Below are positions 8,271-23,782 of a DNA stretch of 36,674 bases, in pieces. This stretch comes from Chloroflexota bacterium (GTDB lineage Bacteria; Chloroflexota; Limnocylindria; Limnocylindrales; CSP1-4): positions 1 to 36,674 of the forward strand of contig JANNHX010000173.1 of NCBI GenBank assembly GCA_031404615.1. The letters run 5' to 3'. Each line of letters opens with the position of its first letter. The stretch's first letter is position 1. The position numbers were made by a program, and so were the translations under genes. The notes under the pieces are model-generated. The model had not been told where the DNA came from and searched no databases. It saw nothing but the letters and a program-made list of their open reading frames with translations.

Positions 8271-8283
8271 ACCTGGAGCTGCC

Positions 8284-9111
8284 ATGTCCGCCGCAATGCC
8301 CGCCCCGAACGCCGCGCTCCGGTGGCTCGGCGAAGCCCGTGCCGTCCTCGACCGCCTCGAGGCGACAGAGCTCGGGGCGATCGAGGATGCAGCGGAGATC
8401 TTCGCGACCACGATCGCCGCCGACCGCCTTGTCCACGTCTTCGGATCAGGGCACTCGCGGATGAACACGGAGGAGATGTTCCCGCGCATCGGCAGCTTCC
8501 CGGGCTTCCATCCCGTCGCCGAGCTCGCCATCAGCAACCATGTGGGCGTCGTGGGGCCCAACGGGTTGCGCCAGGCCATGTTCCTCGAGAAGGTCGACGG
8601 CTTCGGCAAGGTCATCCTCCAGCAGTTCAAGTGCCACCCGGGCGACGCGTTCCTGGTCTTCTCGAGCACGGGGATCAACGGCGTCGTCATCGAGATCGCG
8701 CTCTATGCCAGGAAGATGGGGATGCCCGTGGTCGTCGTGACGTCGGTGGACCACGGCAACGCCACGGCCTCGCGCCACCCCAGCGGCATGAAGCTCATGG
8801 AGATCGCCGACGTCCTGATCGACAACGGGTCGCCGGCCGGAGACGCCGTCGTGGCGATCGATGGGCTGCCGTACAAGGTGGGCCCCAGCAGCTCCGTGGG
8901 TGCCATCTCGGTCGTGAACATGCTCAAGACGCGCACGGCCGAGAAGCTGGTCGAGCGCGGGGTCCTCCCGGTGGTGCTCACCAGCCCGCACTTCGTCGGC
9001 TCGAGCGAGGGCGCCGAGCAGCTCGAACGGGTCTACGAGGAGCACTTCCGGCGCGTTCGCGCAGCCTACGACTCGGACGGTGCCATCGCGGTGCCGGAGA
9101 CCTACGAGTGA
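8284..9111 (+). CDS. SIS-domain protein (UPF0309-like sugar-phosphate isomerase/binding family)
   Basis: LVHVFGSGHSRMNTEEMFPRIGSFPGFHP...FLVFSSTGINGVVIEIALYARKMGMPVVVVTS. ATG at 8284 has GGAG 6 nt upstream and lies 13 nt after the GntR stop. The upstream part of the 423-aa ORF is off-frame overlap with the GntR gene. Confidence 0.8.
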   Translation: MSAAMPAPNAALRWLGEARAVLDRLEATELGAIEDAAEIFATTIAADRLVHVFGSGHSRMNTEEMFPRIGSFPGFHPVAELAISNHVGVVGPNGLRQAMFLEKVDGFGKVILQQFKCHPGDAFLVFSSTGINGVVIEIALYARKMGMPVVVVTSVDHGNATASRHPSGMKLMEIADVLIDNGSPAGDAVVAIDGLPYKVGPSSSVGAISVVNMLKTRTAEKLVERGVLPVVLTSPHFVGSSEGAEQLERVYEEHFRRVRAAYDSDGAIAVPETYE

Positions 9112-9926
9112 GCGATCGGCTCCGTGGCCGGGCCGTGCTGGTCACCGGGGCCACGGGCATCGCCGGCGCGACCGCCGTGCGCGTCGCGAGTGAGGGTGCG
9201 TCCGTCTTCATCGGGACCCGAACCCAGGCCCACGGCGAAGCGCTCGTGGCGCGCATCCGCGACGCCGGGGGCCGCGCCGAGTGTCTGGCCGCCGACCTCA
9301 CGGTCCCGGAGTCGGCCGCTCGCATCGTCGACGCGTGTCGAGCGGCGTTCGGCTCGGTCGACGCAGTGTTCAACGTGGCCGGCGGGAGCGGCCGCCGCTT
9401 CGGCGACGGCCCCGTCCACGAGGCGGATGCCGGGGCATGGGACGCGACGCTCGAGCTCAACGGCCGCTCGGCCTTCCTCGTTTGTGGCGCCGCGGTGCGC
9501 GCGATGCTCGACCAGCCGCCTGGGCCGGACGGGTGTCGGGGCGCCGTCCTCAACATGTCGAGCGTCCTGGCCGCGCACCCTAGCGCGGGGTTCTTCGCGA
9601 CGCACGCCTACACCGCGTCAAAGGGGGCCGTGGAGGCCTTCAGCCGGGCCATGGCGGCGCGCTACGCTCGGGATGGGATCCGGGTCAACGTCATCGCCCC
9701 GGCGCTGACCCGCACGCCGATGGCCGGACGGGCCGCGGCCGATCCCGCCACGGTCGCCTACGCGGCCTGGAAGCAGCCGCTCGCAGGGGGGTTCATGGAG
9801 CCCGAGGACATCGCCGGCACCGCCGCGTTCCTCCTGTCGGCCGATTCCGCCCGCGTGACCGGCCAGACTGTCACCGTGGACGCCGGCTTCGCGCTCATGG
9901 ATGCCTCGTCGGCGGGCGCCTCGTGA
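9108..9926 (+). CDS. Short-chain dehydrogenase/reductase (SDR)
   Basis: VLVTGATGIAGATA (TGxxxGxG) and the catalytic YTASK (YxxxK). GTG start overlaps the SIS stop (GTGA, 9108-9111). Confidence 0.9.
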   Translation: MSDRLRGRAVLVTGATGIAGATAVRVASEGASVFIGTRTQAHGEALVARIRDAGGRAECLAADLTVPESAARIVDACRAAFGSVDAVFNVAGGSGRRFGDGPVHEADAGAWDATLELNGRSAFLVCGAAVRAMLDQPPGPDGCRGAVLNMSSVLAAHPSAGFFATHAYTASKGAVEAFSRAMAARYARDGIRVNVIAPALTRTPMAGRAAADPATVAYAAWKQPLAGGFMEPEDIAGTAAFLLSADSARVTGQTVTVDAGFALMDASSAGAS

Positions 9927-11248
9927 GCTCGGCGCTTGCGTACGATGTCGTCGTCGTCGGGTCCGGCTCGGCGGGCTCGTCGGCCGCCATCGCCGCGGCC
10001 CGTGGCGGGGCCTCGGTCCTGCTGATCGAGAAGCTTCCGTTCCTGGGTGGCACCAGCACGGCGGTCCTGGACACCTTCTACGGGTTCTGGACGCCCGGGT
10101 CCAGCCCGCGGAAGGTCGTCGGCGGGATCGGCGACGAGGTCGTCGCGCGGCTCCGGGAGATCGGCCCCGTCGTGGAGCGGCCGAACACCTTCGGAGCCGG
10201 CCTCGGCGTGACCTATCACCCGGACGAGCTCAAGGTCGCCTGGGAGTCGCTCGTCACGGAGTCCGGCGCGCGGGTCCTCCTCCACGCGTTCGTCCAGGCC
10301 GCCACGGTCCGTTCGGGGCGCCTCGAGTCCGTCACCGTCGCCACCAAGGCCGGACTCCTCGAGGTCGGTGGCTCGGTCTTCATCGACGCCTCGGGCGACG
10401 CCGACCTGTGCCACTTCGCCGGCTTCGGGTACGAGCTGGCGGGCGAGCTCGAGCCTGCGCAGACGCTGACGACGACCTTCCGGATGGTCAATGTCGACCA
10501 GGCCCGGCGACGGACTGTCAGCAAGGCGGAGGTCAACGCCAGACTCGCGGCCGCGGCGGCGACGGGCCGGTACGATCTCCCTCGGCGGGAGGGCTCCGAC
10601 CACATCACGCCGATCGCCGGGGTGACGGCCACGATCATGACGCGCCTCGACTCGTATCGGACGTCCGACGGCCGCGTGGTAAACGCCAGCGATCCGTGGC
10701 TGCTGACCGAGGCCGAGATCGCCGGCCGTCGCCAGGCCCTGGAGTACGTGCGGTTCCTGGTCGACCACGTCCCCGGCTACGAGGATGCGCACCTGGCCAG
10801 CTTCGGGACCCAGGTCGGGGTCCGCGAGACGCGCCGGGTGTACGGCGACCACCGGCTCACCCGCGACGAGGTGCTGTCGGCCGCGCAGTTCGATGACCAG
10901 GTCGCGCTGTGCGGGGCGCCCCTGGAGGACCACCACGCCGGGGCGGACACCGCGTGGACCTACCTGCCCGAAGGGGCAGCCGTCGGCATCCCCTACCGCA
11001 CGCTGCTCGTGAGGGACGCGGACAACGTCCTCGTCGCCGGCCGCTGCTTCTCGGCCACGCATGACGCCCACGCGTCGGTCCGCTCGATGGCCCAGTGCAT
11101 GGCGATGGGCCAGGCGGCCGGAACGGCGGCCGCGCTCGCGGTGGCGGGTCGAGTGACGCCGCGCGAGGTGGCACCGGGCAACCTCCGGGCGGCCCTTGCC
11201 GAAGGCAACGCCATCCTCGAGCTCGACGACGTGGCGGTTCTCGGGTGA
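9923..11248 (+). CDS. FAD-dependent oxidoreductase (FAD_oxidored-type, about 440 aa)
   Basis: YDVVVVGSGSAGSSAAIAAARGGASVLLIEK (GxGxxG + E). GTG start overlaps the SDR stop (GTGA, 9923-9926). Confidence 0.85.
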   Translation: MSSALAYDVVVVGSGSAGSSAAIAAARGGASVLLIEKLPFLGGTSTAVLDTFYGFWTPGSSPRKVVGGIGDEVVARLREIGPVVERPNTFGAGLGVTYHPDELKVAWESLVTESGARVLLHAFVQAATVRSGRLESVTVATKAGLLEVGGSVFIDASGDADLCHFAGFGYELAGELEPAQTLTTTFRMVNVDQARRRTVSKAEVNARLAAAAATGRYDLPRREGSDHITPIAGVTATIMTRLDSYRTSDGRVVNASDPWLLTEAEIAGRRQALEYVRFLVDHVPGYEDAHLASFGTQVGVRETRRVYGDHRLTRDEVLSAAQFDDQVALCGAPLEDHHAGADTAWTYLPEGAAVGIPYRTLLVRDADNVLVAGRCFSATHDAHASVRSMAQCMAMGQAAGTAAALAVAGRVTPREVAPGNLRAALAEGNAILELDDVAVLG

Positions 11249-12249
11249 CGAGCCGGCCGGGCCAGGCGCGGACGGGTGACGCGGGGTTCCTGATCGGCGT
11301 CGACATCGGTGGGACCCGGCTCAAGACCGGCCTCGTCCGCCAGGACGGCACCATCGAGCGGCCCACGGTGGACGCCACGGCGGGGATGCCGTTTCCGGCG
11401 GTGCTGGACCTCATCATCCGACGCGTCGAGGGGCATGTCGAAGCGGGTGGCGGCACGCCGTTGGGGCTCGGCATCGCGCTGCCCGGCATCGTGGAGCCCG
11501 GGTTCGGATCGCGCTACCTGCCGGGCAAGGTGCTGGGGATCGAGGACTTCCCGTTGCGCGACGAGCTCGCCCGCCGGTTCGGGATCCCGGTCCGCTGCGC
11601 CAACGACGGTGCCGCCGCCACCCTCGCGGAGTGGCGGTTCGGCGCTGCGATCGGCATCGACGACGTCGTCGGGCTGACCCTGGGCACGGGTCTCGGGAGC
11701 GGCGTGGTGATCGGCGGGCGGCTCCTCGAGACGGCCAACCTCGGGACGGGCGTGGCCGTCGGGCACTTCACGATCCAGACCGGCGGCCGCCTGTGCCTGT
11801 GTGGCAACCGGGGCTGCGCGGAGAGCCTGGTGTCCGCCAACGCCGTCACCGGGCGGTTGCGTGACGCCCTGACACGGCTCGTCCCGTCATCGCTCGCCGA
11901 GGACTTCGCCCGGGATCCCGCGAGCATCACCTTCCAGTCGCTCATCGGCGGAGTGAGGACGGGTGACCGCGTGTGCACGGAGATCCTGGCCGACTTCGTG
12001 CGGGACCTTGGCACGACGATCGTCACGGCGATCCACGCCTACAACCCAACCGTCGTCGTCCTGGGCGGGGGGCCGATGGCTGCCAGCGACCTGTTCCTTC
12101 ACAACGTGCAGGCGTACGTGAACCAGCACACGTTCATCTTCCCCAAGGGGCGCGTCGTCGAGGTGCGCCAGGCACGGCTGGAGGGCCACGCCGGCGTGCT
12201 CGGGGCCGCAGCCCTCGTCCTGGGCGCAGTCAAGGAGACGGATCGCTGA
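11245..12249 (+). CDS. ROK-family sugar kinase
   Basis: FLIGVDIGGTRLKTG (ATP-binding DxGGT) and the ROK zinc motif CLCGNRGCAE. GTG start overlaps the upstream stop (GTGA, 11245-11248). Confidence 0.9.
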   Translation: MTSRPGQARTGDAGFLIGVDIGGTRLKTGLVRQDGTIERPTVDATAGMPFPAVLDLIIRRVEGHVEAGGGTPLGLGIALPGIVEPGFGSRYLPGKVLGIEDFPLRDELARRFGIPVRCANDGAAATLAEWRFGAAIGIDDVVGLTLGTGLGSGVVIGGRLLETANLGTGVAVGHFTIQTGGRLCLCGNRGCAESLVSANAVTGRLRDALTRLVPSSLAEDFARDPASITFQSLIGGVRTGDRVCTEILADFVRDLGTTIVTAIHAYNPTVVVLGGGPMAASDLFLHNVQAYVNQHTFIFPKGRVVEVRQARLEGHAGVLGAAALVLGAVKETDR

Positions 12250-13214
12250 TGAGCTTCGTGCGGACCGTGCTCGCCGACATCCCGGCGGCGTCGCTCGGCG
12301 TCACGTACGCGCATGAGCACCTGGTCATCGATGGAGGGCGGCCCGTTGCCCTCTACCCGGACTTCCTGCTCGACGATGTCGACCGGGCGGTCGACGAGCT
12401 GGCCCCGGCGAGAGCCCTGGGCCTGGGGGCGGTGGTGGACGCGATGCCCTGCGACGCCGGGCGCAACGTGCGCAAGCTGGCCGAGATCAGCCGCCGGTCC
12501 GGCGTGCACGTTGTCGCGCCGACGGGCCTGCACCTCGCCAAGTACTACGCCGCGGACCACTGGAGCGTCACCGGCAACCAGGACGTGCTCGCCGCGATGT
12601 TCACCGCCGACATCGAGGCCGGGATCGACGCGAACGACTACGCGGGCCCGACGCTCGACCGCACCGGGCATCGCGCCGGCGTCATGAAGATCGCTGGGAG
12701 CGAGCACGGCCTGACGCCACTGGAGCTGAAGATCTACGCGGCCGCAGGGGCCGCCCATCGGGTCACCGGCTGCCCGATCCTCACCCATTGCACCGAGGGA
12801 ACCGCCGCCCTCGAGCAGATCGAGGTCCTTGGCGGCCACGGCGTTGACCCGCGCCACATCGTGCTCTCGCACACCGACAAGATCGTCGACCGCGACTACC
12901 ACCGCGCGATCCTCGAGACCGGCGCCTATGTCGAATACGACCAGACGTTCCGGTGGGGCGCCGATCGGCCGAACGGCACGCTCACCTTGCTGGAGTGGAT
13001 GCTGGAGGACGGGTTCGGCGACCAGCTCCTGCTCGGGATGGATGCCGCGAGGCAGCGCTACTGGTCCACGTACGGCGGCGCACCCGGCATGTCATTCCTG
13101 CTGGGGACCTTCACCGACGCCATGGAGGCGCGCGGCATCGGCGCCGAAGACCGTCGTCGCATCTTCGTCGCCAACCCGGCGAGCGCCTACAGCTTCGCCC
13201 GACCGGTCGCCTGA
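12249..13214 (+). CDS. Phosphotriesterase-family protein (PHP/PLL-type amidohydrolase, probable lactonase)
   Basis: GVTYAHEHL (HxH metal site), VMKIAGSE (Lys at the carboxylated-lysine position), THCTEG, LSHTD. ATG overlaps the ROK stop by 1 nt (TGATG, 12247-12251). Confidence 0.85.
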   Translation: MSFVRTVLADIPAASLGVTYAHEHLVIDGGRPVALYPDFLLDDVDRAVDELAPARALGLGAVVDAMPCDAGRNVRKLAEISRRSGVHVVAPTGLHLAKYYAADHWSVTGNQDVLAAMFTADIEAGIDANDYAGPTLDRTGHRAGVMKIAGSEHGLTPLELKIYAAAGAAHRVTGCPILTHCTEGTAALEQIEVLGGHGVDPRHIVLSHTDKIVDRDYHRAILETGAYVEYDQTFRWGADRPNGTLTLLEWMLEDGFGDQLLLGMDAARQRYWSTYGGAPGMSFLLGTFTDAMEARGIGAEDRRRIFVANPASAYSFARPVA

Positions 13215-13220
13215 CGAGCG

Positions 13221-14525
13221 CTACATCCCGAAGACCGAGCGGGCAAGCGCCACCCAGCGCGTGAGCCGAGCGCGGTCGCCGGCGATGGCGTAGAGGTCCC
13301 GGAACAGCAGCTCCACGTTGCAGCCGCCGGCCGCATGGGCGGTCCGCCGAAGATCGCGCTCCACGAGCTCCCAGTCGGGGGACGGGCCGCTCAGGAAGGC
13401 CGCGTTGGGCTTGCGGGAGTAGACGTATCGGTCACCCAGCATCTCCGCCACGAGCTCGAAGCTCGCCCACGGGGAGACGGAGACGGACCGCAGGTTGGGC
13501 ATCGCCTCCATGATCAGCTCGAGTCGGTCGTGGACCGGCTCGCAACACCCGTAGTAGACGAGGCCGAAGCGAGCCGCCAGGCGGGCGATGTAGGGCAGGA
13601 AGAACTCGCGGTACATGGCCGGCGACACCGTCGTGGTCTCCTGGGACTCCGCCCAGCACCACAGGTCGCCGAGGCCGGCCGTGCCCGGCGCATCGGCCGG
13701 GGGGAGCGACGACACGTAGCCGTACGCCCGGGGTCCCGCCATCTGGCTGTCGGTGTTCGGCACGATCAGTCCCTCGCGCTCGAGCTCGCCGAACATCCGC
13801 TCGCGGTCACGGGTCATGTACTCCATCAGCTCATGGATCGCGTCGGGCGCGTCGTACAGCCAGTAGAGGAGCCCGTCGTTGCCGATGAAGCGGTAGACCT
13901 GCCACGTGAGACCCAGGAAGTAGTTGCCGGCCCAGCTCTCGTTCCCCTGCTCGACCATGAAGTGGTCGTAGTTGCCGACCCGCACGGGCAGCACGTCGCC
14001 GAATGCGTCCTCCAGGAGGCGCTGCCGGGCCAGCGTGCCGGGCCGGTCGACCGAGAACGACCGCGGCTTGAGCAGCGCGACCTGGGCCGGGCTGCGGATG
14101 GGGAAGTTGAAGGTGTAGCCCAGCGACGGGTCGCCGTCCGCCGTGTGCGCGGGCCGCGTCTCGACGTCCACGCCGAAGGGGGTGCTCCCGATGTCCCAGC
14201 CGATCCGGTAGTAGGGCTCGAGGACGATGTCGTCGCCGACCTCGTCCGCGTGGCGGATCGTGTCGCGCAAGTTCGCCTCCACGGCACGCAGGATCGGTTG
14301 CGCGCAGCGCAGCTCGGACGTCTCGACGTATCCCTCGATGGAGGACGTCTCGAAGAGCACCATCGGCCGCTCCGGGCGCAGGTCGTGCAAGGCCCGCCAC
14401 TGGCGGCGGCGATCTGCCATCACGGGCTGCCCGGCGAGCTCCGCCCAGCGGGTCGCGAGGTCCCGGATGACGGCGCGGTCCGCAGTCGAGGGCACGAGGG
14501 TCGACGGGGCGGGTCGCTCGGTCAT
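13221..14525 (-). CDS. Hypothetical protein, distant UROD/MetE-like TIM-barrel superfamily member
   Basis: 434-aa product. The N-terminal RRRQWRALHDLRPERPMVLFETSSIEGY block and the C-terminal LVYYGCCEPVHDRLELIMEAMPNLRSVSVSPWASFE...YSRKPNAAFL block resemble an uncharacterised family usually annotated as uroporphyrinogen-decarboxylase-like. ATG at 14525 overlaps the upstream stop (ATGA, 14522-14525). Confidence 0.5.
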   Translation of the reverse strand: MTERPAPSTLVPSTADRAVIRDLATRWAELAGQPVMADRRRQWRALHDLRPERPMVLFETSSIEGYVETSELRCAQPILRAVEANLRDTIRHADEVGDDIVLEPYYRIGWDIGSTPFGVDVETRPAHTADGDPSLGYTFNFPIRSPAQVALLKPRSFSVDRPGTLARQRLLEDAFGDVLPVRVGNYDHFMVEQGNESWAGNYFLGLTWQVYRFIGNDGLLYWLYDAPDAIHELMEYMTRDRERMFGELEREGLIVPNTDSQMAGPRAYGYVSSLPPADAPGTAGLGDLWCWAESQETTTVSPAMYREFFLPYIARLAARFGLVYYGCCEPVHDRLELIMEAMPNLRSVSVSPWASFELVAEMLGDRYVYSRKPNAAFLSGPSPDWELVERDLRRTAHAAGGCNVELLFRDLYAIAGDRARLTRWVALARSVFGM

Positions 14526-15649
14526 CGGCAGGGCGTGTCGCGGATCGTCTCCACCATCGCCCAGAAGTTCTCGAGCGGGGTGTCCAGCTGGACGTGGTGG
14601 GTGGGTCCCAGGATCAGGCCGCCCCCGCGCCCGATGGTGTCGAGCCGCAGCCGGATCTCGGCACGGACGTCGTCGGCGGTCCCGAACGGGAGGGTGTGCT
14701 GCTCGTCGATGCTCCCCCAGAACCGGAGGCGGTCGCCGAACTCGCGCTTGATCCAGGCCGGGTCCATGCACGCCGGCTGGACCGGGTTGAGCACGTCGAT
14801 GCCGATCTCGACCAGCTCCGGGAGCACCGCCCGGACGTCACCGTCCGTGTGGTACGCCACCAGCAGCGACGGGTTGATCGCTTTCACGCGGGCGATGAGC
14901 TCGGCCATGCGGGGCTTGTAGAAGCGGCGCCAGGTCGCGGGGCTGAACAGCATCCCCCGCTGGCTGCCGATGTCGTCACCGGTCCACAGCATGTCCACGC
15001 CCAGGCTCGCGAGGCGCTCCGCCGCGGCCATGTGGTAGCGGAACGGGAACTCCACGATCGCGTCTGTCAGCTCGGGCTCGGTGACCATGTCGACGAGCAG
15101 CTGCTCGTAGCCGCGCAGCGCCCAGGCCGTCTCCCAGATCGTCGTGACCGTCGCGCCCACGATGAAGTAGTCGTCCCCGAAGTCGCGGATCGTCGCGATC
15201 GCGTCCGCGTAGAGCGAATCGCGCGTGGGGTCGGGCGGGATGTACGACGCGACCGCCGCGTCGTCGGCGAGCGGGTGGCCCACCATCTCCGTGTACCGCC
15301 CGCCGCCGAACCGCGTCGAGTAGGGCTGGCTCTGCCACGTCACGCCCCACTCGTCCGTGTACCGGTCGCCCTCCTGGTAGTAGCCGTTCGCCCAACCCAC
15401 GGACGTGAGCAGGATGTCCTCGCCGATGGCACGCTCGAGCTCGTGCGTGTTCCCGCCCCCGTGGGGGTTGTGGGCGCCGGCGCGGGCCGCGTCGCTGTTG
15501 AGCGCGAGGTCCGGCTCGGCCAGCATCCCGCGCCGGACGAGGTCGTCCCGGAGCCGGCCGGCGAACTCCGGCGTGAAGCTGATCTGCATCGGGCACCGGT
15601 CGGGTGCCTCACGCGCTAGCGCCTGGAGGACGCGGTCTCGATGACGCAA
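14522..15649 (-). CDS. URO-D family protein of MtaA/CmuA (corrinoid methyltransferase) type
   Basis: N-terminus RHRDRVLQALAREAPDRCP (compare the paralog's SRERVRAALDHREPDRLP). Also MLWTGDDIGSQRGMLFSP...LLVAYHTDGDVRAVLPELVEIGIDVLNPVQP...LRFWGSIDEQHTLPFGT. I place the start at TTG 15649, preceded by GGGAGGAG 6 nt upstream. The longest-ORF GTG at 15736 would overlap the corrinoid gene. Confidence 0.8.
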   Translation of the reverse strand: MRHRDRVLQALAREAPDRCPMQISFTPEFAGRLRDDLVRRGMLAEPDLALNSDAARAGAHNPHGGGNTHELERAIGEDILLTSVGWANGYYQEGDRYTDEWGVTWQSQPYSTRFGGGRYTEMVGHPLADDAAVASYIPPDPTRDSLYADAIATIRDFGDDYFIVGATVTTIWETAWALRGYEQLLVDMVTEPELTDAIVEFPFRYHMAAAERLASLGVDMLWTGDDIGSQRGMLFSPATWRRFYKPRMAELIARVKAINPSLLVAYHTDGDVRAVLPELVEIGIDVLNPVQPACMDPAWIKREFGDRLRFWGSIDEQHTLPFGTADDVRAEIRLRLDTIGRGGGLILGPTHHVQLDTPLENFWAMVETIRDTPCR

Positions 15650-15692
15650 GTGGTCTCCTCCCGGCCGGGTGACCGGCCGCAGCGGCTCCGGG

Positions 15693-16322
15693 CTAGGCTC
15701 CCGCCAGGGCGAGCTTGGCGACGTCGGCGGCAGCACCGGCGTCGGGTGCGTAGTAATCCGCGCCGATGGACGCCGCGAACTCGGGCGTGACGGGGGCTCC
15801 GCCGACGATCACCCTGACGGCGGGGTCGACGGCGTGGACCGCCTCCACGGCGTCGCGCATGCCGACCATCGTCGTCGTGAGCAGCGCGCTGATGCCCACG
15901 ATCGAGGCCCCGAACTCGCGCACCGCGTCGGCGAAGGCCGCGGGAGTGACGTTGACGCCGAGGTCCACGACCGCGATGTTGGCGCCCTTCCACATCATGG
16001 CGACGAGGTTCTTGCCGATGTCGTGGAGGTCGCCCTGGATCGTCCCGATGACGGCGGTGTGCTCCGGCTTGAGGCCCGCGGCCAGGAGGGCCGGCGCGAG
16101 GACGGCCGTGGCCTCCTTCATGGCCCGGGCGCTGATCAGCATCTCGGGCACAAAGATGTCACCGGCCTGGAACCGGGCGCCGACGACCTCCATCGCCGCG
16201 ATCATCGCGTCGAGGACGACCTGCGGGTCCATCCCGTCGGCGACCGCGTCGGTGGTGATCCGGACGGCCGTCGCCCGGTCTCCGGCCTCGATGGCCTGGG
16301 TGAGCGGTACGAGATCAGCCAC
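15693..16322 (-). CDS. Cobalamin-binding corrinoid protein (methyltransferase cognate; B12-binding cap + Rossmann domain)
   Basis: DxHxxG base-off/His-on motif (GDLHDIGKNLV), SxL (ISALLTTT), GG (VIVGGAPV), and an N-terminal helical cap (AIEAGDRATAVRITTDAVADGMDPQVVLDAMIAAMEVVGARFQAGDIFVPEMLISARAM). GTG at 16322 is preceded by AAGGAGA. Confidence 0.9.
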   Translation of the reverse strand: MADLVPLTQAIEAGDRATAVRITTDAVADGMDPQVVLDAMIAAMEVVGARFQAGDIFVPEMLISARAMKEATAVLAPALLAAGLKPEHTAVIGTIQGDLHDIGKNLVAMMWKGANIAVVDLGVNVTPAAFADAVREFGASIVGISALLTTTMVGMRDAVEAVHAVDPAVRVIVGGAPVTPEFAASIGADYYAPDAGAAADVAKLALAGA

Positions 16323-16392
16323 GGGTCTCCTTGGTGCTGTCGGCCCGAGCGCGTGAACGCGAGCGGGGGCTTGAACCGGACGCCGCATGCAG

Positions 16393-16413
16393 TATGATAC
16401 CAATCCTACCAAT
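16393..16413. promoter_or_regulatory. Candidate operator/promoter: TATGATACCAATCCTACCAAT (ATACCAAT plus a direct TACCAAT repeat, overlapping a TATGAT -10-like hexamer)
   Basis: An AT-rich patch lies in the 115-nt divergent gap between the corrinoid-protein operon and the plus-strand URO-D-family gene. It shares the 8-mer with sites at 7387 and 25015. Confidence 0.4.
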
Positions 16414-16437
16414 TGTCACGAGGATTCCGGCGTGCCG

Positions 16438-17583
16438 ATGACATCCCGCGAGCGCGTCCGAGCGGCCCTCGACCACAGGGAGCCGGACCGCCTCCCCGTC
16501 GATCTCGGCGGATCGATCGTCACATCGATCACGAAGGCGGCGTACGAGCCGCTCATGGCCCACCTTGGGCTCGACGCCGAGCCCGTTCGCGTCTACGACG
16601 AGGTCCAGCAGCTGCCGTTCCTCGCGGACTCGCTCCTCGACCGCTTCGGTGTAGACACCCGGATGGTCCAGCTGCCCCCGACCCACGTCGCCGGCGTCCC
16701 GATCATCGACGACGGGGAGTACTGGGCCATCTTCGACCGCTGGGGCTCCAAGATGCGGATGCCCAAGCGGAACGGCCTCTACTACGACTGGGTGGACTAC
16801 CCCATCGAGCCCACCCTCGAGTCGCTGGCCGGCTACACGTGGCCCGAGCCGGACCCGGTCGAGGTCGTCGCCACGCTCGCCGAACGCGCGAAGTGGCTCT
16901 ACGAGCACACCGACTACGCCCTCGTGGGGTCCGGCGTCATCGGCGGCGGCATCTTCGAGCAGGCGTGCCGGACGGTGGGCCTCGAGACCTTCATGGAGGC
17001 CATGCTCCTGGATCGTCCGTTCGCCGAGCGCCTCGTGGACGGGATCACGGACATCTACGTCGAGTCCGTGAACCGGTATCTCGACCAGGTGGGCCGGTAC
17101 ATCGACGTCTTCACCTTCTGGGACGACGTCTGCTCCCAGGACGGCTGGATGATCAGCCCGACGATCTACGCGAGCCTGATCAAGCCGCGCCAGCGACGGC
17201 TGTTCGACGCGATCAAGGCGAAGACCGACGCGAAGATCTTCTACCACGGCTGCGGCGCCGTGTTCGACCTGGTCCCGCACCTGATCGAGATCGGGGTCGA
17301 CATCCTCAACCCCGTGCAGGTCAGCGCGCGGGGGATGGACTCGGCCCGCCTGAAGGCCACCTACGGTCGCGACGTGACCTTCTGGGGTGGGGGAATCGAC
17401 ACCCAGCGGGTGCTGCCGTTCGGGACCGCCGCGGAGGTCCGCGACGAGGTCAAGCGGCGGATCGACGACTTCGCCCCGGGCGGCGGGTTCGTGTTCGCGA
17501 CCGTCCACAACATCCAAGCGTTCGTCCCGCCCGAGAACATCGTTGCGGTCTACGACACGGTGCGCGAGCACGGCGCCCGCTGA
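16438..17583 (+). CDS. URO-D family protein of MtaA/CmuA (corrinoid methyltransferase) type
   Basis: MTSRERVRAALDHREPDRLPVDLGGS...FTFWDDVCSQDGWMISP...KIFYHGCGAVFDLVPHLIEIGVDILNPVQ...VTFWGGGIDTQRVLPFGT...GGGFVFATVHNIQ. Start at ATG 16438 (alternatively GTG 16432) with GAGGA upstream. Confidence 0.85.
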   Translation: MTSRERVRAALDHREPDRLPVDLGGSIVTSITKAAYEPLMAHLGLDAEPVRVYDEVQQLPFLADSLLDRFGVDTRMVQLPPTHVAGVPIIDDGEYWAIFDRWGSKMRMPKRNGLYYDWVDYPIEPTLESLAGYTWPEPDPVEVVATLAERAKWLYEHTDYALVGSGVIGGGIFEQACRTVGLETFMEAMLLDRPFAERLVDGITDIYVESVNRYLDQVGRYIDVFTFWDDVCSQDGWMISPTIYASLIKPRQRRLFDAIKAKTDAKIFYHGCGAVFDLVPHLIEIGVDILNPVQVSARGMDSARLKATYGRDVTFWGGGIDTQRVLPFGTAAEVRDEVKRRIDDFAPGGGFVFATVHNIQAFVPPENIVAVYDTVREHGAR

Positions 17584-17595
17584 CGCGGGCACTTC

Positions 17596-20500
17596 CTATG
17601 CCGTCCCGGGCGGCGAGGCCGGCGGCGGCTCGCCCGCGATCCGGTCGAGCGCGCGGAGCGCGCCCATGTGCGATGGGTCGGCCGCGAGGACCTCGGCGAG
17701 GACGTCGCTCGCTTCGCCGGTGCGCCCGAGGGCACCCAGCGCGACGCCCTCGAGCCAGCGGCAGTCGAGGCGATGGCGTCGGTCGAGGTCGTCCTCGAAG
17801 ACGAGGAACGTCGGCAGGGACGTCGCGAAGAAGTCGATCCCCACGGGTTTCCTCGCCGCCCGGCGCGTGGCGTGCAGCAGGCCGCGGATGGCGAGCGCGC
17901 CGTCGTCGTGCCTGCCGGTGGCAACGAGCGCCAGGCCCCGGAAGGCCGCGGCCGCATGCAGCTCCGCGCCCGCCGGGAGCGGCGAGGCCGCTCGCCCCCA
18001 GGCGGCGAGCGCGCCTGCGGCGTCGCCGGCGGCCTGCCTCGCGCGACCCAGCTCGAACCAAAGCTCGTGCTCCGGATCCAGCGGATGGCGCGCCTCGCCG
18101 AGCGTCTCGGGCGGCTCGAGGGCGGCGTCGAGGTGGCCGATCGCTGCCGCCGCGTCGCCCGCCAGGAGCGCGGCCCTGCCTAGGCGGAGCCTCGCGCCGG
18201 TATGGGCATCGAGCGCCAGCCCCTCGCCGCCCTCCCAGGGGTGGAACCGGCGGCCGGAGAGGTGGGCCAGCGCGGCGGCGGCGCCTCGGACCTGCTCGAG
18301 CAGCAGCGCCATCTCGACACCGAGGTCGTCGCGGAGCGCCACCAGGTCGCGCTGACGCTCGAGGCGCCGGAGCCGCGCGGCGGGCGAGGCACCACGGCGC
18401 TTCTGGAGCTGGTCCAGCTCGTAGAGCACCCGCGCGTCGGTGGGGTCACAGGCGAACGCACGCAGGAACGAGCGCTCGGCGGCGCCGGGGGCGCGGAGCA
18501 CGTTGGCCTGCGCGATCCCCAGGTTGCGATGCACCGTCGGAAAGCCGGGGTCCAGCGCCCGGGCGGTGCGCCAGCAGGCGATCGCGTCGGCGTACCTGCG
18601 CCGGTCGTAGTAGAGGTTCCCGAGGTAGTACGGCGCGCGCGGGTCGCTGGGAACGGCGGCGGATGCGGCGAGCAGGATCTCGATCTCCACGAGGCGTGCG
18701 GGAAAGCAGCCATCCGCCGGCAGGGCGGCGGCGCGCCGGTACCAGGCCGCAGCCCCGTCCGGATCCCCGAGCCGGTCGCGGATCCAGCCCACGGTGTACG
18801 CGACCATCGGGTCGAGCGACGGTCCGCCCTCCGCGGCCACCACGAGCGGCGCGAGCTCGTCCTCGGCGTCGGCCAGCAGGCCAGCTGCAGCGTACTCGTG
18901 AGCGATGTCGAGCGCCGCCTGGGTCGCGGGCTGTCCCAGCACGGCGGCGGGCACCGGCAGATCACCGGGGCCCGGGCCTTCGAGCCGCCGGCGCTCCGCG
19001 AGCAGCCACCGGTCCAGCGGGTCCACGGCCAGGCCCGCGGCCACGACCGCAAGGGCGCCCACGTCGTCGCCCTGGTGGCGAAGCAGCGCAGCCTTGAGCG
19101 CGACCGCGGTCGCGTGCCTCGGATCGGCATCGAGCGCCCGGTCCGCCCGCGCGAGGGCACCACGCAGGTCTCCGGCCCGGGCGCGGAGCTGCGCGAGGGC
19201 ATGCTCAGCGGGTGCCTGCCATGCCCGCGACCACGTGGCCTTGGCGAGGGACTCCTCCGCCTCGGCATCGCGGCCGAGAAGCGCGAGACAGAGCCCGATC
19301 TGGTAGAAGGGCTCACCGTCGCCCGGGTTCGCGTTGCGCCGCGTCACACGGTCTACGGCCGTCCGCAGGTGCCGCTCCGCGTCGGCGTACCGGCCCGCGC
19401 GCAGCAGCATGACCCCGACGGCCGTGTTCGTCCGGACATCCGTGGGATCCCGCCGTAGCGCCTCCGCCCAGTACGGTCCGGGAAGCCTCGTCGCGTGGCG
19501 GTACTGCTCCAGGTGCACCGCGGTCAGGTACAGCTCCTCGATGGTCGGGACGTTGGCCGGGGCCGGCGGCTCCGCCGCGAGGACTGCGCCGGCTGCGGGC
19601 GCGTCCGACGCGGTGGAGGCCCGGATGAGCTCCCGACCATCCGCGGCACGCACCACGACGTCGAGAGTGGCGCCGGCCTGCAGCCCCGCGGGGAGCGCCA
19701 GGCGCAAGGGCGCGGCCGGCGTGATGGCTCCCCGGCGCTCTGCGAGGACCGCGCCGTCCCGGGTGACCACGACCAGGGCCGGCTCGACGGCTCGGGTCAC
19801 GTTGACGCCAACCTCGATCGCGACGGCGGCGGCGTCGCGCCGGACGCTCACGGCGGCGTCCCGGTTGGCCGCGAGCACGGGACCGATGTCCCGGATCGGG
19901 TACCAGGCCTGGGTGAACGTCCTGGTCTCGTAGGGCGCGAGGTAGGAGAAGTCCGGCTGGTTGTCGGTGTAGACCCCGGCCATCAGCTCGATGTAGGGGC
20001 CGCCCCCATCGGTGAGGTTGCGCTCCCACGCACGCCCGAACGCTGCGTCGCCCCAGGTCCACTGCTTCTTGCCGGGCGCGACGCGGTGGTCGGCGATGTG
20101 GACGAGGCCGGCGCCGGCCTCATGGTCGTAGCCGCCGAAGAAGTCCTCGCGGGACCCGACGGCCATGTACGAGGTCGGAACGGGGATGTTGGCGTACCAC
20201 GAGAGGTCGGCTGCCTCGGGCGGTCGCGCCCCGTAGTCGACGCCGTAGTAGCGGCCCCGGGCCACCGGGAACGCCGAGGTCGCGCGCCGGGCGTGGTCCG
20301 CCACGGAACGCACGTCGGACGGGAAGAACGACTGGTAGCGCTCGTTGACTCGGACGGCGACGTTCGCCCACCACAGGAAGGTCTGCGTGTGGGGCGTCCG
20401 GTTGGCGAGCCGGACGCGCGCCTCCACGAGCGACGAGCCGGGGCGCAGCCGGATCCCCACCATGCCCTTCATCCGGTTCATCGGCTCGTGGTCGCCCATC

Positions 20501-20976
20501 CACACGATCCGACCGCCGTCGGGCTCCTCCTCGATCGCCCAGTCCACCGGCATGAAGGTCGACGGCCGGTGGTGCTGCGGCCAGTTGAACTCGACGCCGC
20601 CGCTGATCCACGGCCCGAGCAGGCCGACCAGGGCGGGCTTGATCACCGGCTGGCGGTAGAAGAAGTCGTAGCCGTTGGTCCTGTCGCGGCCGACCTGGAT
20701 CCTGCCCCCGATCTCGGGGAGCAGCATCAGCGAGACGAGGTCGTTCTCGAGGTGGATCGCCTGCCAGGTGCGGTCCTCGCAGACGTCCAGGACGCGATCG
20801 ATGATCCGGTTCGGGTACACCCTCCCGCTGCTGCCCTGGTAGACCCGCTTCTCGAGGAACATCGGGTTCCGGTCCGGGGGCGCGAGCGGGTACGTCGGGA
20901 TGACGACGGGCTCGGCCCATGCCCGGACGCCCGTCTCGGGGGCTCCGCTGGGGGACGCATCGTCGCCGGCCATCAT
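17596..20976 (-). CDS. Large DUF5107-domain protein with a C-terminal TPR array (1126 aa)
   Basis: The N-terminus IPTYPLAPPDRNPMFLEKRVYQGSSGRVYPNRIID...GPWISGGVEFNWPQHHRPSTF matches my recollection of DUF5107. The C-terminal ~650 aa has repeated A/L-rich helical TPR-like units (YYLGNLYYDRRRYADAIACWRTARALDP...). The start lies 4 nt after the permease stop. Confidence 0.75.
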   Translation of the reverse strand: MMAGDDASPSGAPETGVRAWAEPVVIPTYPLAPPDRNPMFLEKRVYQGSSGRVYPNRIIDRVLDVCEDRTWQAIHLENDLVSLMLLPEIGGRIQVGRDRTNGYDFFYRQPVIKPALVGLLGPWISGGVEFNWPQHHRPSTFMPVDWAIEEEPDGGRIVWMGDHEPMNRMKGMVGIRLRPGSSLVEARVRLANRTPHTQTFLWWANVAVRVNERYQSFFPSDVRSVADHARRATSAFPVARGRYYGVDYGARPPEAADLSWYANIPVPTSYMAVGSREDFFGGYDHEAGAGLVHIADHRVAPGKKQWTWGDAAFGRAWERNLTDGGGPYIELMAGVYTDNQPDFSYLAPYETRTFTQAWYPIRDIGPVLAANRDAAVSVRRDAAAVAIEVGVNVTRAVEPALVVVTRDGAVLAERRGAITPAAPLRLALPAGLQAGATLDVVVRAADGRELIRASTASDAPAAGAVLAAEPPAPANVPTIEELYLTAVHLEQYRHATRLPGPYWAEALRRDPTDVRTNTAVGVMLLRAGRYADAERHLRTAVDRVTRRNANPGDGEPFYQIGLCLALLGRDAEAEESLAKATWSRAWQAPAEHALAQLRARAGDLRGALARADRALDADPRHATAVALKAALLRHQGDDVGALAVVAAGLAVDPLDRWLLAERRRLEGPGPGDLPVPAAVLGQPATQAALDIAHEYAAAGLLADAEDELAPLVVAAEGGPSLDPMVAYTVGWIRDRLGDPDGAAAWYRRAAALPADGCFPARLVEIEILLAASAAVPSDPRAPYYLGNLYYDRRRYADAIACWRTARALDPGFPTVHRNLGIAQANVLRAPGAAERSFLRAFACDPTDARVLYELDQLQKRRGASPAARLRRLERQRDLVALRDDLGVEMALLLEQVRGAAAALAHLSGRRFHPWEGGEGLALDAHTGARLRLGRAALLAGDAAAAIGHLDAALEPPETLGEARHPLDPEHELWFELGRARQAAGDAAGALAAWGRAASPLPAGAELHAAAAFRGLALVATGRHDDGALAIRGLLHATRRAARKPVGIDFFATSLPTFLVFEDDLDRRHRLDCRWLEGVALGALGRTGEASDVLAEVLAADPSHMGALRALDRIAGEPPPASPPGTA

Positions 20977-20980: not shown

Positions 20981-22114
20981 TCAGGCGCTCGCGGTGGTCC
21001 TGGACCCGGACCGCTCGGAGCGCGACTGGCGCCACTGCGACAGGGCGACCGCGAAGACGAGCAGCATGCCGAGGGCGATCCGCTGGTAGAACTGGCCCAC
21101 GCCGAGCAGATTCATCCCGTTGTTGAGGACGCCGACGAGCAGGACCGCGAGGACCGTGCCCACGATGGTGCCGCGGCCACCCGCGGTCGCCGCCCCGCCG
21201 AGGAACACGGCGGTGATCGCCTGGAGCTCGAGGCCGCGACCGTTGATCGGGTTGCCCGACGTCGTCTGGGCCGTGAGGAGGACGCCGGCGATGCCGGCGA
21301 TCGCGCCCGACACCACGTACATGCCGATGCGCACAGCCCGGACGTTGATGCCCGCCAGGCGTGCGGCCGTGGCGTTGCCGCCGATCGCGTAGATGGACCG
21401 GCCGAAGTCGGTGTAGCGCATGACGATGTGCATGATCGTGGCCACCGCGATGAACACCACGAACATGACCGGCAGTCCCGGCCACGGGCGTCCTCCAAGC
21501 GCAGGCAGCGGCAGGTCCTGGAGAAATCGGCCTGTCCCCAACCACGTGAAGTCGGGATGGGTGACGATGCCGATCGGCTTGCCTCCGGGCGCAACGAGGA
21601 ACGCGAGGCCGTCGAATGCGGCCAGCGTGCCAAGCGTTGCGATGATCGGGTTCACCTTGAGGACCGTCACGATGAGGCCGTTGATGACGCCCGCGGCAGA
21701 CCCGGCACCCATGCCGGCGGCGAAGGCGAGCACCACGGAGCCCTCGAAGGCACCGAGGATCCCCTGGGTCACGGCAAGGGCAGAGACGACGGACGCCAGG
21801 CTGGCGATGGAGCCGACCGAGATGTCGAGCGCGCCGGCGACGATGACGGCCGTCTCGCCGACCGCCAGGAGCCCGACGATGACCACGCTCTGGGCGAGGC
21901 TGTTGATGAGGTTCTGCCACGAGAAGAAGTTCTCTCCGCCCTTGATCCCGAATAGCGGCGAGACAAACGCGATCAGGATGCCGAGAGCCGCCAGGGCAGC
22001 GAACAGCGAGAGGTTGTCCACGCCGATCGTGCCGATGACCCGGCGAAACACTCCGGGCCCCGTGGGCTTCGCGGATGGTGCGGGCTGCACGGCCGGAGCC
22101 TGCCCGTCGTTCAT
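20981..22114 (-). CDS. Sugar ABC transporter permease (CUT2/RbsC-XylH type)
   Basis: About 10 hydrophobic segments and GALDISVGSIASL (typical of BPD_transp_2 permeases). ATG at 22114 overlaps the ATPase stop (ATGA, 22111-22114). The longest ORF adds an R/P-rich junk extension. Confidence 0.85.
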   Translation of the reverse strand: MNDGQAPAVQPAPSAKPTGPGVFRRVIGTIGVDNLSLFAALAALGILIAFVSPLFGIKGGENFFSWQNLINSLAQSVVIVGLLAVGETAVIVAGALDISVGSIASLASVVSALAVTQGILGAFEGSVVLAFAAGMGAGSAAGVINGLIVTVLKVNPIIATLGTLAAFDGLAFLVAPGGKPIGIVTHPDFTWLGTGRFLQDLPLPALGGRPWPGLPVMFVVFIAVATIMHIVMRYTDFGRSIYAIGGNATAARLAGINVRAVRIGMYVVSGAIAGIAGVLLTAQTTSGNPINGRGLELQAITAVFLGGAATAGGRGTIVGTVLAVLLVGVLNNGMNLLGVGQFYQRIALGMLLVFAVALSQWRQSRSERSGSRTTASA

Positions 22115-23697
22115 GCTCGAACTTCTCCAGCTAGGGCCGGCGGCACGGGGACCGCGGCCAGGTGGTCGGCCATGGCGAGGGCGAGGACGGACTCCTCGGT
22201 CGCCTGGCTGCCGAGGAGCTCGCCGCGGATCCGGCCGGCCTGCATCACGTAGATGCGGTCGCAAAGGCCGAGGATCTCGGTCAGCTCGGACGAGATGAGG
22301 ACGACGGCGAGCCCGTCAGTGGCGAGCCCGTCGATGAGGCGATAGATCTCCGCCTTGGCGCCGACGTCGATGCCGCGGGTCGGCTCGTCGAGGATCAGCA
22401 CGCGCGGCTTGGCGGCGAGCCAGCGGGCGAGGACGACCTTCTGCTGGTTGCCGCCGGACAGCTTGCCGATCTCCTGCTCGAGCGACGGGGTCCGGACACG
22501 CAGGCGGTCGACGAACGTGGCGACGATGCGGCGTTCCTCTCGGCGGCGGACGAAATGCAGGGTCGTGAGGCGCCGCAGGATCGTGAGCGACGCGTTCTCG
22601 AGCACGCTGCGGATCGGGATGATCCCCTCGCGCTTGCGCTCCTCGGGCGTGTAGCCGATGCCGACGCGGATGGCGTCCGACGGGCGGTGGACATGGACCA
22701 CCTTGCCGTCGACCTGCACGGTGCCGGCGGTCATCGGCAGCTCGCCGAACACGACCTTCGCCAGCTCGGTGCGGCCGGCGCCGACGAGCCCGGCGAAACC
22801 GACGACCTCACCCGCCCGCGCCTCGAACGACACGTCTCGGTGCCAGTCGCTGGACAGGTGGTCGACGCGCAGCACGACGGCCCCGGTCGGAGGGCGGTTG
22901 CGGGCGAAGACGTCAGTGATGGGCCGGCCCACCATCAGGCGCACGATCTCGCCCTCGGTAAGGTCGGCGGCGGCGCGCACGGCGACGAGCCGTCCGTCAC
23001 GGAGCACCGCGACGCGGTCGGCCAGGCGGAGGATCTCGTTGATCCGGTGGGAGACGTAGATGATGGCGACGCCCTGCGCCCGGAGCCTGCGGACCAGCGC
23101 GAACAGGCGGTCCACTTCGGCGTCGGTGAGCGACGACGTCGGCTCATCCAGGGCGAGCACCCTGACGCCGGATTTGAGCGCCCGGGCGATCTCCACGAGC
23201 TGCCGCTGGGCGGCCGACAGCCGGTCACCCATGGTCTCGGGGCTCAGGACCGATTCGAACCCAAAGCGCCGCAGGTCCGCGGCAACGAGCTCGTTGAGCT
23301 TGCGCCGATCGATGAACGGGCCACGCGTCGGCAGCTCGCCCGCGTAGATGTTTTCGGCGACGTCCACGCCGGGGATGATCTCGGGCTCCTGGTAGATGAC
23401 GCGGACCCCGGCGTGCCGGGCCTCCCGCGGATTGGAGAACCGGAGGGTCACCCCGTCGAGGGTCATCGTCCCGTCGTCGGGCTGATAGTCGCCGTTGAGG
23501 ATCTTGAGCAGCGTCGACTTGCCGGCGCCGTTCTCGCCCATGCAGGCGAGGATCTCGCCGCCGTGGACATCGAGCGACACGTCGTCCAGGGCCTGGACGT
23601 TTGGAAAGGCCTTGCTCAGGCCGCGGATCTCCAGGGTGCCCGTGTCGGGGCTCCCCGGCTGCCGGTCGGCGGTTGCCGGCTCCAAGTCAGGCGCCAT
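22111..23697 (-). CDS. Sugar ABC transporter ATP-binding protein, fused double NBD (RbsA/MglA/XylG type)
   Basis: NBD1: Walker A GENGAGKST, signature LSAAQRQ, Walker B LALDEPT. NBD2: GLVGAGRTE, LSGGNQQK, LILDEPTRGID. Confidence 0.9.
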   Translation of the reverse strand: MAPDLEPATADRQPGSPDTGTLEIRGLSKAFPNVQALDDVSLDVHGGEILACMGENGAGKSTLLKILNGDYQPDDGTMTLDGVTLRFSNPREARHAGVRVIYQEPEIIPGVDVAENIYAGELPTRGPFIDRRKLNELVAADLRRFGFESVLSPETMGDRLSAAQRQLVEIARALKSGVRVLALDEPTSSLTDAEVDRLFALVRRLRAQGVAIIYVSHRINEILRLADRVAVLRDGRLVAVRAAADLTEGEIVRLMVGRPITDVFARNRPPTGAVVLRVDHLSSDWHRDVSFEARAGEVVGFAGLVGAGRTELAKVVFGELPMTAGTVQVDGKVVHVHRPSDAIRVGIGYTPEERKREGIIPIRSVLENASLTILRRLTTLHFVRRREERRIVATFVDRLRVRTPSLEQEIGKLSGGNQQKVVLARWLAAKPRVLILDEPTRGIDVGAKAEIYRLIDGLATDGLAVVLISSELTEILGLCDRIYVMQAGRIRGELLGSQATEESVLALAMADHLAAVPVPPALAGEVRA

Positions 23698-23734
23698 ACG
23701 TCCTCACCGATGCGCTCTCTTGAGCATGGACTGT

Positions 23735-23762: not shown

Positions 23763-23782
23763 CCAGCCAGGAGGAGGATGGA

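Follow-up and report, generated by a model that had tools for sequence, protein, structure and literature searches.

Corrinoid and UROD-fold genes at the locus

The 36,674-nucleotide stretch of Chloroflexota DNA analyzed here (the window; contig JANNHX010000173.1 of assembly GCA_031404615.1, ~72% G+C) carries a gene for a predicted corrinoid (cobalamin-binding) carrier protein, Corr, together with genes for three proteins of the uroporphyrinogen decarboxylase (UROD) fold, UrodA, X3 and UrodB, all three of which lie within or beside the Corr operon. A first-pass annotation of the sequence had presented these genes as a cobalamin-dependent methyltransferase module, and its coordinates and structural description of the four genes proved correct in every detail. 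Orthologs at 60 to 90% identity are numerous for each of the four proteins, and we therefore regard all four genes as genuine. The four protein families are well conserved, and their members are named either “hypothetical” or “uroporphyrinogen decarboxylase” in the source databases.

Corr (15693-16322, minus strand) is a protein of 209 amino acids (aa) with a predicted cap domain and Rossmann domain; its gene begins with a GTG start codon preceded by AAGGAG. Both of its Pfam domains, B12-binding_2 (PF02607; 8.7e-19, 67.9 bits against a cut-off of 23) and B12-binding (PF02310; 8.1e-25, 87.4 bits against 32.1), clear the gathering score, giving the two-domain architecture of carriers of the MtaC/MtmC/MtgC type, and a corrinoid protein from Moorella (PDB 1y80) matches Corr at 4e-47. 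A motif scan found the complete set of His-on ligand motifs on the minus strand, with DxHxxG present as DLHDIG (residues 98-103; 16014-16031), SxL as GISALL (residues 143-148; 15879-15896) and GG as VGGAP (residues 173-177; 15792-15806). The Pfam domains, the 1y80 match and the motifs thus agree with the earlier description of a canonical B12-binding protein heading the operon. Corr bears all of the sequence hallmarks of a cobalamin carrier and is predicted to bind cobalamin, but it falls under the cut-off of every NCBIfam equivalog model (MtgC, MtbC and MtaC), and so no substrate-specific membership can be assigned; its top score was 162.5 with MtgC_2 (cut-off, 370), and pyl_corrinoid gave 141.5 (cut-off, 215.3).

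UrodA (14522-15649, minus strand; 375 aa) is encoded 43 nt downstream of Corr, and its gene starts with a TTG codon 7 nt after the ribosome binding site GGGAGGAG. Both its position and its Pfam match support the annotation of this gene, with this start and ribosome binding site, as a member of the URO-D family. UrodB (16438-17583, plus strand; 381 aa) is encoded divergently from Corr. Its start at 16438 is backed by orthologs with the N terminus MTPRER, which fixes the divergent spacer at the 115 nt (16323-16437) originally proposed. Both UrodA (1.6e-27, 96.9 bits) and UrodB (2.2e-20, 73.4 bits) pass the gathering cut-off of Pfam URO-D (PF01208; 23.9 bits). The two proteins share 36% identity, confined to the C-terminal 199 aa, and their N-terminal halves cannot be aligned.

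Their relationships within the superfamily point to methyltransferases. MtaA (PDB 4ay7) matched UrodA as a single sequence at 5.9e-10, and a profile built from the 22-member UrodA family gave 2.2e-11 for MtaA and 0.75 for HemE. In a search of PDB sequences, UrodB found HemE as its sole match, at 0.0057. Among NCBIfam models, UrodA and UrodB matched only those of the MtaA/CmuA/MtbA type, all far under their cut-offs (for TIGR01463, MtaA/CmuA, 72.3 and 57.4 bits, respectively, against 235.4), and X3 gave no match to TIGR01463. The hemE NCBIfam model found none of the three proteins at E<=0.01, and the N-terminal WxMRQAGR substrate-binding motif of HemE is missing from all three. The label “MtaA/CmuA-type” given to UrodA and UrodB at first therefore holds insofar as their NCBIfam matches are to methyltransferases and not to HemE, but at 72 and 57 bits against 235 the proteins score well under the cut-off of the family that the label names. 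We concluded that UrodA and UrodB belong to the methyltransferase branch of the URO-D superfamily and not to HemE; their catalytic activity is predicted.

We next considered the metal-binding residues. In the printed MtaA alignment, the MtaA zinc positions HICG and APGCG align with YHTDG and GPTHH in UrodA, giving H267-x-D269 (14840-14854, minus strand) and H351/H352 (14588-14602, minus strand) as putative metal ligands. This H-D-H triad does not vary across the 22 family members, which also share an invariant HNPHGGGN motif (15449-15472, minus strand). At the aligned positions, UrodB has YHGCG and VHNIQ, that is, putative ligands H270-x-C272 (17242-17256, plus strand) and H357 (17503-17517, plus strand), or H-C-H; one relative has H-x-D. 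Thus, neither UrodA (H-x-D...H) nor UrodB (H-x-C...H) has the His-x-Cys...Cys zinc site of thiol-methylating enzymes. In the UroD superfamily, S-methyltransferases carry a His-Cys-Cys site, whereas O-methyltransferases have one or both Cys residues exchanged for a carboxylate or a nonligand residue (PMC10418091), and by this rule the putative metal sites of UrodA and UrodB would be of the O type.

X3 (13221-14525, minus strand; 434 aa) is far more divergent. Its ATG start codon overlaps the UrodA stop codon as ATGA, which implies translational coupling. Its match to Pfam URO-D (0.0064, 16 bits) lies under the 23.9-bit cut-off, a profile of its family found no meaningful match among PDB sequences, and hhalign of the X3 and UrodA families returned a probability of 4%, with just a local SQ..SP..F..P motif in common. 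An AF2 model of X3 (pLDDT 82.9, pTM 0.84) searched with Foldseek found MtaA (PDB 4ay8) as the top match (1.9e-7), followed by ~20 HemE structures, with TM scores of 0.47-0.58, and one relative of X3 (P0075) has a precomputed PF01208 match. We assigned X3 to the UROD group on the basis of the fold match and the P0075 match, and the model predicts that it shares the UROD fold with MtaA and HemE. Thus, the initial view of X3 as a third, very divergent UROD-like protein coupled through ATGA was right both at the level of the fold and in the overlap. The X3 family alignment shows invariant GCCEP (13536-13550), ESQE (13638-13649) and NTD (13749-13757) motifs, all on the minus strand.

Gene order and carbohydrate context

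To place these genes in a wider context, we collected 80 genome loci around relatives of X3 and 80 metagenome loci around relatives of UrodA and scored their open reading frames (ORFs) against the window proteins. The top genome matches to X3 came from metagenome-assembled genomes (MAGs) of Chloroflexia, at 74-75% identity. A tight, same-strand Corr-UrodA pair was found in L083, L085, L088-L091, L093-L099, L102, L107, L108 and L116, and Corr shares its strand with a UrodA ortholog in 28 loci overall, mostly abutting it. The pair is present with every UrodA ortholog of at least 74% identity that has upstream sequence. The Corr-UrodA order is therefore conserved in related loci, as a module of this kind had been expected to be. 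The orders Corr-UrodA-X3 and Corr-X3 recur in L093 and L084, respectively. A UrodB ortholog adjoins a UrodA ortholog in 16 of the 19 loci that have UrodB, and L083 has the same divergent layout as the window; adjacency of UrodB to Corr is inconsistent (7 of 19 loci).

Every neighborhood examined is carbohydrate related. The module occurs in sugar loci of Chloroflexota, Acidobacteriota-like bacteria, Spirochaetota, Verrucomicrobiota and Christensenellaceae, and the arrangement recurs in many uncultured soil and gut bacteria. Besides CUT2 ABC transporters, which are among the recurring contexts, the neighbors include a KDPG aldolase and a ROK kinase (L083); a GFO/IDH/MocA oxidoreductase, an SDR protein, an MR_MLE dehydratase, GH88, DHDPS-type aldolases and an FGGY kinase (L084); an FBP aldolase and an FGGY kinase (L115); a TonB-dependent receptor, RhaT and GH42 (L137); and an SMP30 lactonase with MR_MLE (L099). 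We identified neither an activase nor a separate pterin methyltransferase among the genes examined in related loci, where the only pterin-binding domain is that within MetH of L016. No MttB homolog occurs in 169 related loci.

The window itself presents the same picture, and the sugar island in which the genes had been placed is borne out by its ABC importer, ROK and PTE genes. A plus-strand operon (7446-13214; Pfam) that stops 7 nt short of X3 encodes, in order, a GntR/UTRA regulator, an SIS_2 protein, an SDR protein, an FAD oxidoreductase (PF12831), a ROK kinase and a PTE-family lactonase. The PTE-family protein is nearest to the phospho-furanose lactonases 3msr and 3pnz (3e-43); the FAD oxidoreductase found no informative relative in the PDB beyond its dinucleotide-binding motif. 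On the other side, a monosaccharide-type ABC importer (20981-25030, minus strand; Pfam) comprises a BPD_transp_2 permease, a double ATPase and a binding protein (23783-25030, minus strand) nearest to the L-arabinose-binding protein AraF of Escherichia coli (8e-27). The plus-strand operon and the AraF-like protein resemble an uncharacterized pathway in which a pentose or aldose would be oxidized by way of a phosphorylated furanose lactone. Between UrodB and the importer lies a gene for a 1126-aa protein with DUF5107 and TPR domains (17596-20976, minus strand; Pfam), which recurs by the ABC transporter and the Corr-UrodA pair in L083, L085, L088, L102 and L108. The N-terminal 480 aa of this protein were modeled with low confidence (pLDDT 60), and the matches of the model to 5cd6 (BDI_1685) and to folds of galactose mutarotases are suggestive only. 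DUF5107 family members also occur in UROD-free sugar loci (L170 and L171).

Pfam searches of the window identified no pterin-binding methyltransferase and no RamA/RACE activase, and a search of all six frames for the ferredoxin motif CxxCxxCxxxC found none. These scans uphold the first-pass annotation, which had noted the lack of a pterin-dependent methylcorrinoid:acceptor methyltransferase (MT2) and of a RamA-type activase. It had also proposed searching the rest of the genome for a B12 riboswitch; within the window, nothing reached the gathering score in an Rfam scan, and hence no cobalamin riboswitch is present there. The description of the module as an “orphan” is not absolute, because a gene for a non-pyrrolysine MttB-superfamily methyltransferase (734-2401, minus strand; PF06253, 7.6e-187), 13 kb away, had been overlooked. 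This protein scores 307 bits with TIGR02369, under the cut-off of 525 for pyrrolysine trimethylamine methyltransferases, and its gene is flanked by genes for a metallophosphoesterase, an MFS transporter and a flavin amine oxidase, with no corrinoid gene of its own adjoining. In three stretches of the window (5051-6027, 25037-27077 and 28431-29808), codon-position G+C pointed to no convincing gene, and Pfam gave nothing beyond weak matches to PAPS_reduct (1e-4) and YCII (6e-4).

The 115-nt region between Corr and UrodB contains two overlapping sigma-70-like promoter sites, where 0.2 would be expected for the region scanned. Within it, the 18-mer TTGGTAGGATTGGTATCA (16395-16412) holds a GTAT-N-ATAC palindrome resembling GntR-type operators. 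Its 15-nt core, TGGTAGGATTGGTAT, is also found at the equivalent position in the closest related locus, L083, and nowhere else in the window or among 171 loci, and so no regulon can be defined.

Some related loci showed further features. A full-length MetH gene lies divergently beside a GntR-SIS-FADox-ROK-PTE-X3-UrodB operon in two Chloroflexia MAGs (L016 1107-5030, minus strand, and L011 17198-21274, plus strand), with no separate corrinoid protein at that spot. In four loci, an operon for a HoxEFUYH-type NAD-linked [NiFe] hydrogenase directly follows Corr-UrodA and precedes two further URO-D genes (L085 11780-16603, L088 11394-16213, L089 4109-8928 and L099 11240-16174); this enzyme might supply reductant for corrinoid reactivation, or its presence might be a coincidence within one lineage. 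In the same loci, a conserved ORF of ~316-330 aa with no Pfam match lies between the ABC permease and Corr (L085 8225-9172, L088 8279-9229, L089 994-1944 and L099 8068-9057); it occurs in one subclade, and we noticed no counterpart in the window. A DUF1638 gene cut by the locus end (L089 13674-13816) lies beside EamA and two URO-D genes. In Phaeobacter, genetics showed that the split B12 methionine synthase requires DUF1638 (PMC5764234). DUF1638 is a candidate accessory factor in corrinoid systems devoid of RamA. Two further settings have X3 with two to three URO-D paralogs and no corrinoid gene. The first is a sugar operon with ABC and GntR genes in the cultured gut anaerobe Christensenella tenuis (L035 and L036, 6951-12323); in the second, a metagenome-derived chromosome assembly of 6.1 Mb (L001, the same as L017, 6355-18887), the neighbors are GH106 rhamnosidases and a GH67N-like protein. 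Finally, in the contigs of L083, L084, L085 and L088 (ERZ250395xx/ERZ250394xx), which are among the public contigs most similar to the window, Corr, DUF5107, ABC and PTE genes that are intact in the window are fragmented. This suggests frameshift errors in those assemblies, and the counts of gene presence drawn from them are therefore conservative.

A proposed sugar demethylation and its alternatives

The corrinoid hallmarks of Corr, the Corr-UrodA pairing and the putative O-type metal sites, in a consistent sugar context, led us to a model in which the genes encode a corrinoid-dependent methyl-transfer module within an island for monosaccharide uptake and oxidation. The most likely role of this module would be to demethylate an imported O-methylated sugar, a reading we favor tentatively and with slightly less than even confidence. 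The AraF-like ABC system would import a methylated pentose- or galactose-like sugar, a UROD enzyme with a His/Asp/His metal site would polarize the ether oxygen, and cob(I) on Corr would take the methyl group, yielding CH3-Co(III). Because of its pairing with Corr, UrodA is the prime candidate for the enzyme that removes the methyl group. A second UROD-fold enzyme (UrodB and/or X3) would hand the methyl group to an acceptor other than tetrahydrofolate. As no C1-carrier methyltransferase was ever found nearby, this acceptor may be water or another hydroxyl (resulting in net hydrolysis of the ether to methanol) or a thiol. The freed sugar would then be oxidized by the SDR protein and phosphorylated by the ROK kinase, and the lactone ring would be opened by the PTE-family protein. 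Reactivation of Co(II) is not encoded in the window and would have to come from elsewhere in the genome.

Several observations weigh against this model. A corrinoid gene was present in only 7 of the 24 UrodA loci with at least 3 kb of flanking sequence on both sides, in 4 of the 19 with UrodA orthologs at ~62-65% identity, and in 4 of the 56 X3 loci with at least 3-kb flanks. This rarity means that B12 dependence is at most a possibility for UrodB and X3 and is not universal for UrodA. The sugar operons of L016, L035 and L036 hold three or four UROD-fold genes and no corrinoid protein. Furthermore, the window carries no activase, no gene for B12 uptake or synthesis and no riboswitch; the metal ligands are assigned by alignment with MtaA rather than from structural data; the choice of sugar is a guess; and the evidence for the module is genomic. 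To our knowledge, methanol (with MtaB, which belongs to a different family) is the sole precedent for cob(I) cleavage of a nonactivated alkyl methyl ether. The original picture of a single B12 module with three UROD proteins was thus too tidy, since only the Corr-UrodA link is tight.

A bolder version of the model is possible, although we consider it doubtful. In it, the His/Asp/His UROD enzymes would constitute a cobalamin-dependent, O2-independent O-demethylase that moves the ether methyl group of a free monosaccharide onto the corrinoid and then, with no need for folate or coenzyme M (CoM), releases it to a simple acceptor such as water, that is, a “corrinoid ether hydrolase.”

The main rival to the demethylation model is that Corr and UrodA alone depend on cobalamin, and that X3, UrodB and the other URODs of sugar loci are B12-independent metal TIM-barrel enzymes for other sugar chemistry, which share only ancestry and neighborhood with the Corr-UrodA pair. 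We think this somewhat unlikely, but the weak corrinoid linkage of X3, UrodB and the more distant UrodA relatives means that some of these proteins may act without B12. Of the 56 X3 loci, 4 have a corrinoid gene and 22 a further URO-D gene. The complete GntR-to-PTE operon of L016 and L011 runs straight into X3-UrodB and two more URO-D genes with no corrinoid protein, and the Christensenella loci L035 and L036 have UrodB-like, UrodA-like, X3 and one other URO-D gene with no Corr within 10 kb. In L001, the X3 and URO-D genes lie amid GH106 genes. X3 also lacks an H-x-C/D motif and has its own invariant GCCEP. Against this, the X3 gene of the window belongs to the Corr operon, with translational coupling to UrodA, and X3 keeps company with Corr in L093 and L084, and in the L011 genome a Corr-UrodA pair lies just ~12 kb from X3-UrodB on the same contig, beside DUF5107 and an ABC transporter. 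A corrinoid protein may also be encoded elsewhere in the genomes that seem to lack one. Apart from the related MetE clan, we know of no B12-independent activity in the URO-D family other than that of HemE.

Alternatively, the genes could resemble type 1 mlp clusters or MtsA/MtpA in handling S- or Se-methyl groups, either demethylating a methylthio compound (e.g., the methylthio-sugar 5-methylthioribose) or methylating a thiol or selenide. A cluster with several UROD genes and a corrinoid protein but no folate methyltransferase is what has been described for such systems (PMC10418091), MtaA is the nearest solved relative, UrodB retains one Cys, X3 has an invariant Cys-Cys pair, and MetH adjoins the related operon in L011 and L016. 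The putative triads, however, are H-D-H and H-C-H rather than His-Cys-Cys, there is no Ram/RACE gene, no genes of sulfur or selenium metabolism turned up in the window or among those examined in related loci, and the TIGR01463 scores are far under the cut-off. We accordingly give this explanation little credence.

Less probable still is that Corr serves, or also serves, as the carrier for the MttB-superfamily enzyme at 734-2401 in a glycine-betaine-type demethylation like that of MtgB/MtgC, with the URODs on the acceptor side. The MttB gene shares the window with Corr, the sole corrinoid protein found there; MtgC-type models top the NCBIfam list for Corr; aerobic MtgBCD systems exist (PMC12478193); and the MttB gene has flavin amine oxidase and MFS transporter genes at its flanks. 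The two genes are nevertheless 13 kb apart with at least one other operon between them, the MtgC score is 162 against a cut-off of 370, and no MtgA/D pterin methyltransferase was identified in the window. Synteny gives no support to MttB as the true partner of Corr, as none of the 169 related loci (with Corr-UrodA or X3) has an MttB homolog. Finally, although source databases call these proteins “uroporphyrinogen decarboxylase” and HemE is the only PDB sequence that UrodB matched, we rejected the idea that the UROD-like genes encode ordinary HemE or heme-pathway paralogs, given that there is no hemE match, that the UrodA family profile prefers MtaA (2.2e-11) to HemE (0.75), that the RQAGR and WxMRQ substrate-binding motifs are lacking, and that the sugar island, which has no heme genes, holds three copies next to a corrinoid protein.

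Relation to known systems and implications

The nearest described entities are the type 1 mlp clusters (Kountz and Balskus, bioRxiv 2023, PMC10418091), which are widespread and whose physiology is uncharacterized. Like the genes described here, they combine several MtaA-like URO-D paralogs with one small corrinoid protein and lack a tetrahydrofolate methyltransferase. They always include a Ram/RACE activase, have His-Cys-Cys zinc sites and lie near sulfur or selenium genes; their hosts are obligate anaerobes (73% Firmicutes), and the Mlp proteins are ~30% identical to MtaA/MtbA (PMC10418091). The present module, in contrast, has putative H-D-H and H-C-H sites, occurs in carbohydrate contexts and in Chloroflexota, and shows weaker similarity to MtaA (72 and 57 bits against 235). 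No Ram/RACE activase came up in Pfam searches, whether of the window or of the genes examined in related loci, and UrodA and UrodB differ from the His-Cys-Cys type.

Aryl-methyl-ether O-demethylases (Odm and Vdm of Acetobacterium, Mtv of Moorella, and Dhaf), compared here by description, consist of a substrate:corrinoid methyltransferase (MT1), a corrinoid protein, an MT2 and an activating enzyme. The proposed likeness lies in an MT1 of the URO-D family that moves the methyl group of an O-methyl ether to a small corrinoid protein and in the replacement of Cys ligands at the zinc site of O-methyltransferases (PMC10418091). The known substrates of those systems are phenyl methyl ethers, whose leaving group is a good one; tetrahydrofolate receives the methyl group, and the activase is ATP dependent, whereas here we identified neither folate transfer nor an activase, and the context is one of sugars and not of aromatic compounds. 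MtaA/MtbA/MtsA (PDB 4ay7) provide the best solved relative of UrodA by sequence and of X3 by fold, sharing the C-terminal half of the barrel and the aligned metal positions, but the window has no CoM pathway, the zinc ligands differ, the N-terminal halves cannot be aligned and the scores stay under the NCBIfam cut-offs.

Free-standing corrinoid proteins are also known from non-methanogenic, non-acetogenic bacteria, in MtgB/MtgC/MtgD of aerobic marine bacteria (PMC12478193) and in the split methionine synthase (PMC5764234), and the MttB-family gene in the window and DUF1638 in L089 recall these systems. Here, however, the partners of Corr have the URO-D fold and are neither MttB nor pterin-binding proteins, the related loci are without an MttB homolog, and the adjacent arrangement of MttB, corrinoid protein and pterin methyltransferase that characterizes the three-component MttB systems is absent, the MttB gene being 13 kb from Corr.

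In terms of proposed role, the closest counterpart is the P450 O-demethylase for 6-O-methyl-D-galactose, which is likewise found in sugar utilization loci (PMC6292453, PMC10033563). The proteins are unrelated, and the P450 chemistry depends on O2 and yields formaldehyde. Our search of the literature on corrinoid- or cobalamin-dependent sugar demethylation, UROD genes in glycoside hydrolase loci and DUF5107 returned only the mlp preprint and the P450 work, and the O2-dependent P450 was the sole sugar demethylase in it (PMC6292453); a search on DUF1638 led to the methionine synthase work. An O2-independent removal of methyl groups from methylated sugars, which the present module may carry out, was not found in the literature searched.

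Methyl ethers of sugars, such as 4-O-methyl-glucuronate, 2-O-methyl-xylose, 2-O-methyl-fucose, 6-O-methyl-galactose and the methyl-inositols, occur widely in the biomass of plants, algae and microbes and stand in the way of ordinary catabolism. If true, the ether hydrolase version of the model would extend cob(I) chemistry to nonactivated alkyl methyl ethers and would be an anaerobic counterpart of the P450 sugar demethylase. The missing activase and C1-carrier methyltransferase would pose a clear mechanistic question. In a profile search, the UROD clade around UrodA comprised 1,926 clusters (at 50% identity) at E<=1e-30 and 7,041 at E<=1e-10, and database annotation of this clade reads only “uroporphyrinogen decarboxylase.” Should members of the clade prove to be corrinoid methyltransferases linked to sugars, a role would be found for thousands of misannotated genes, soil and gut heterotrophs would have a new demand for B12, and there may be a new biological source of methanol or methylated thiols.

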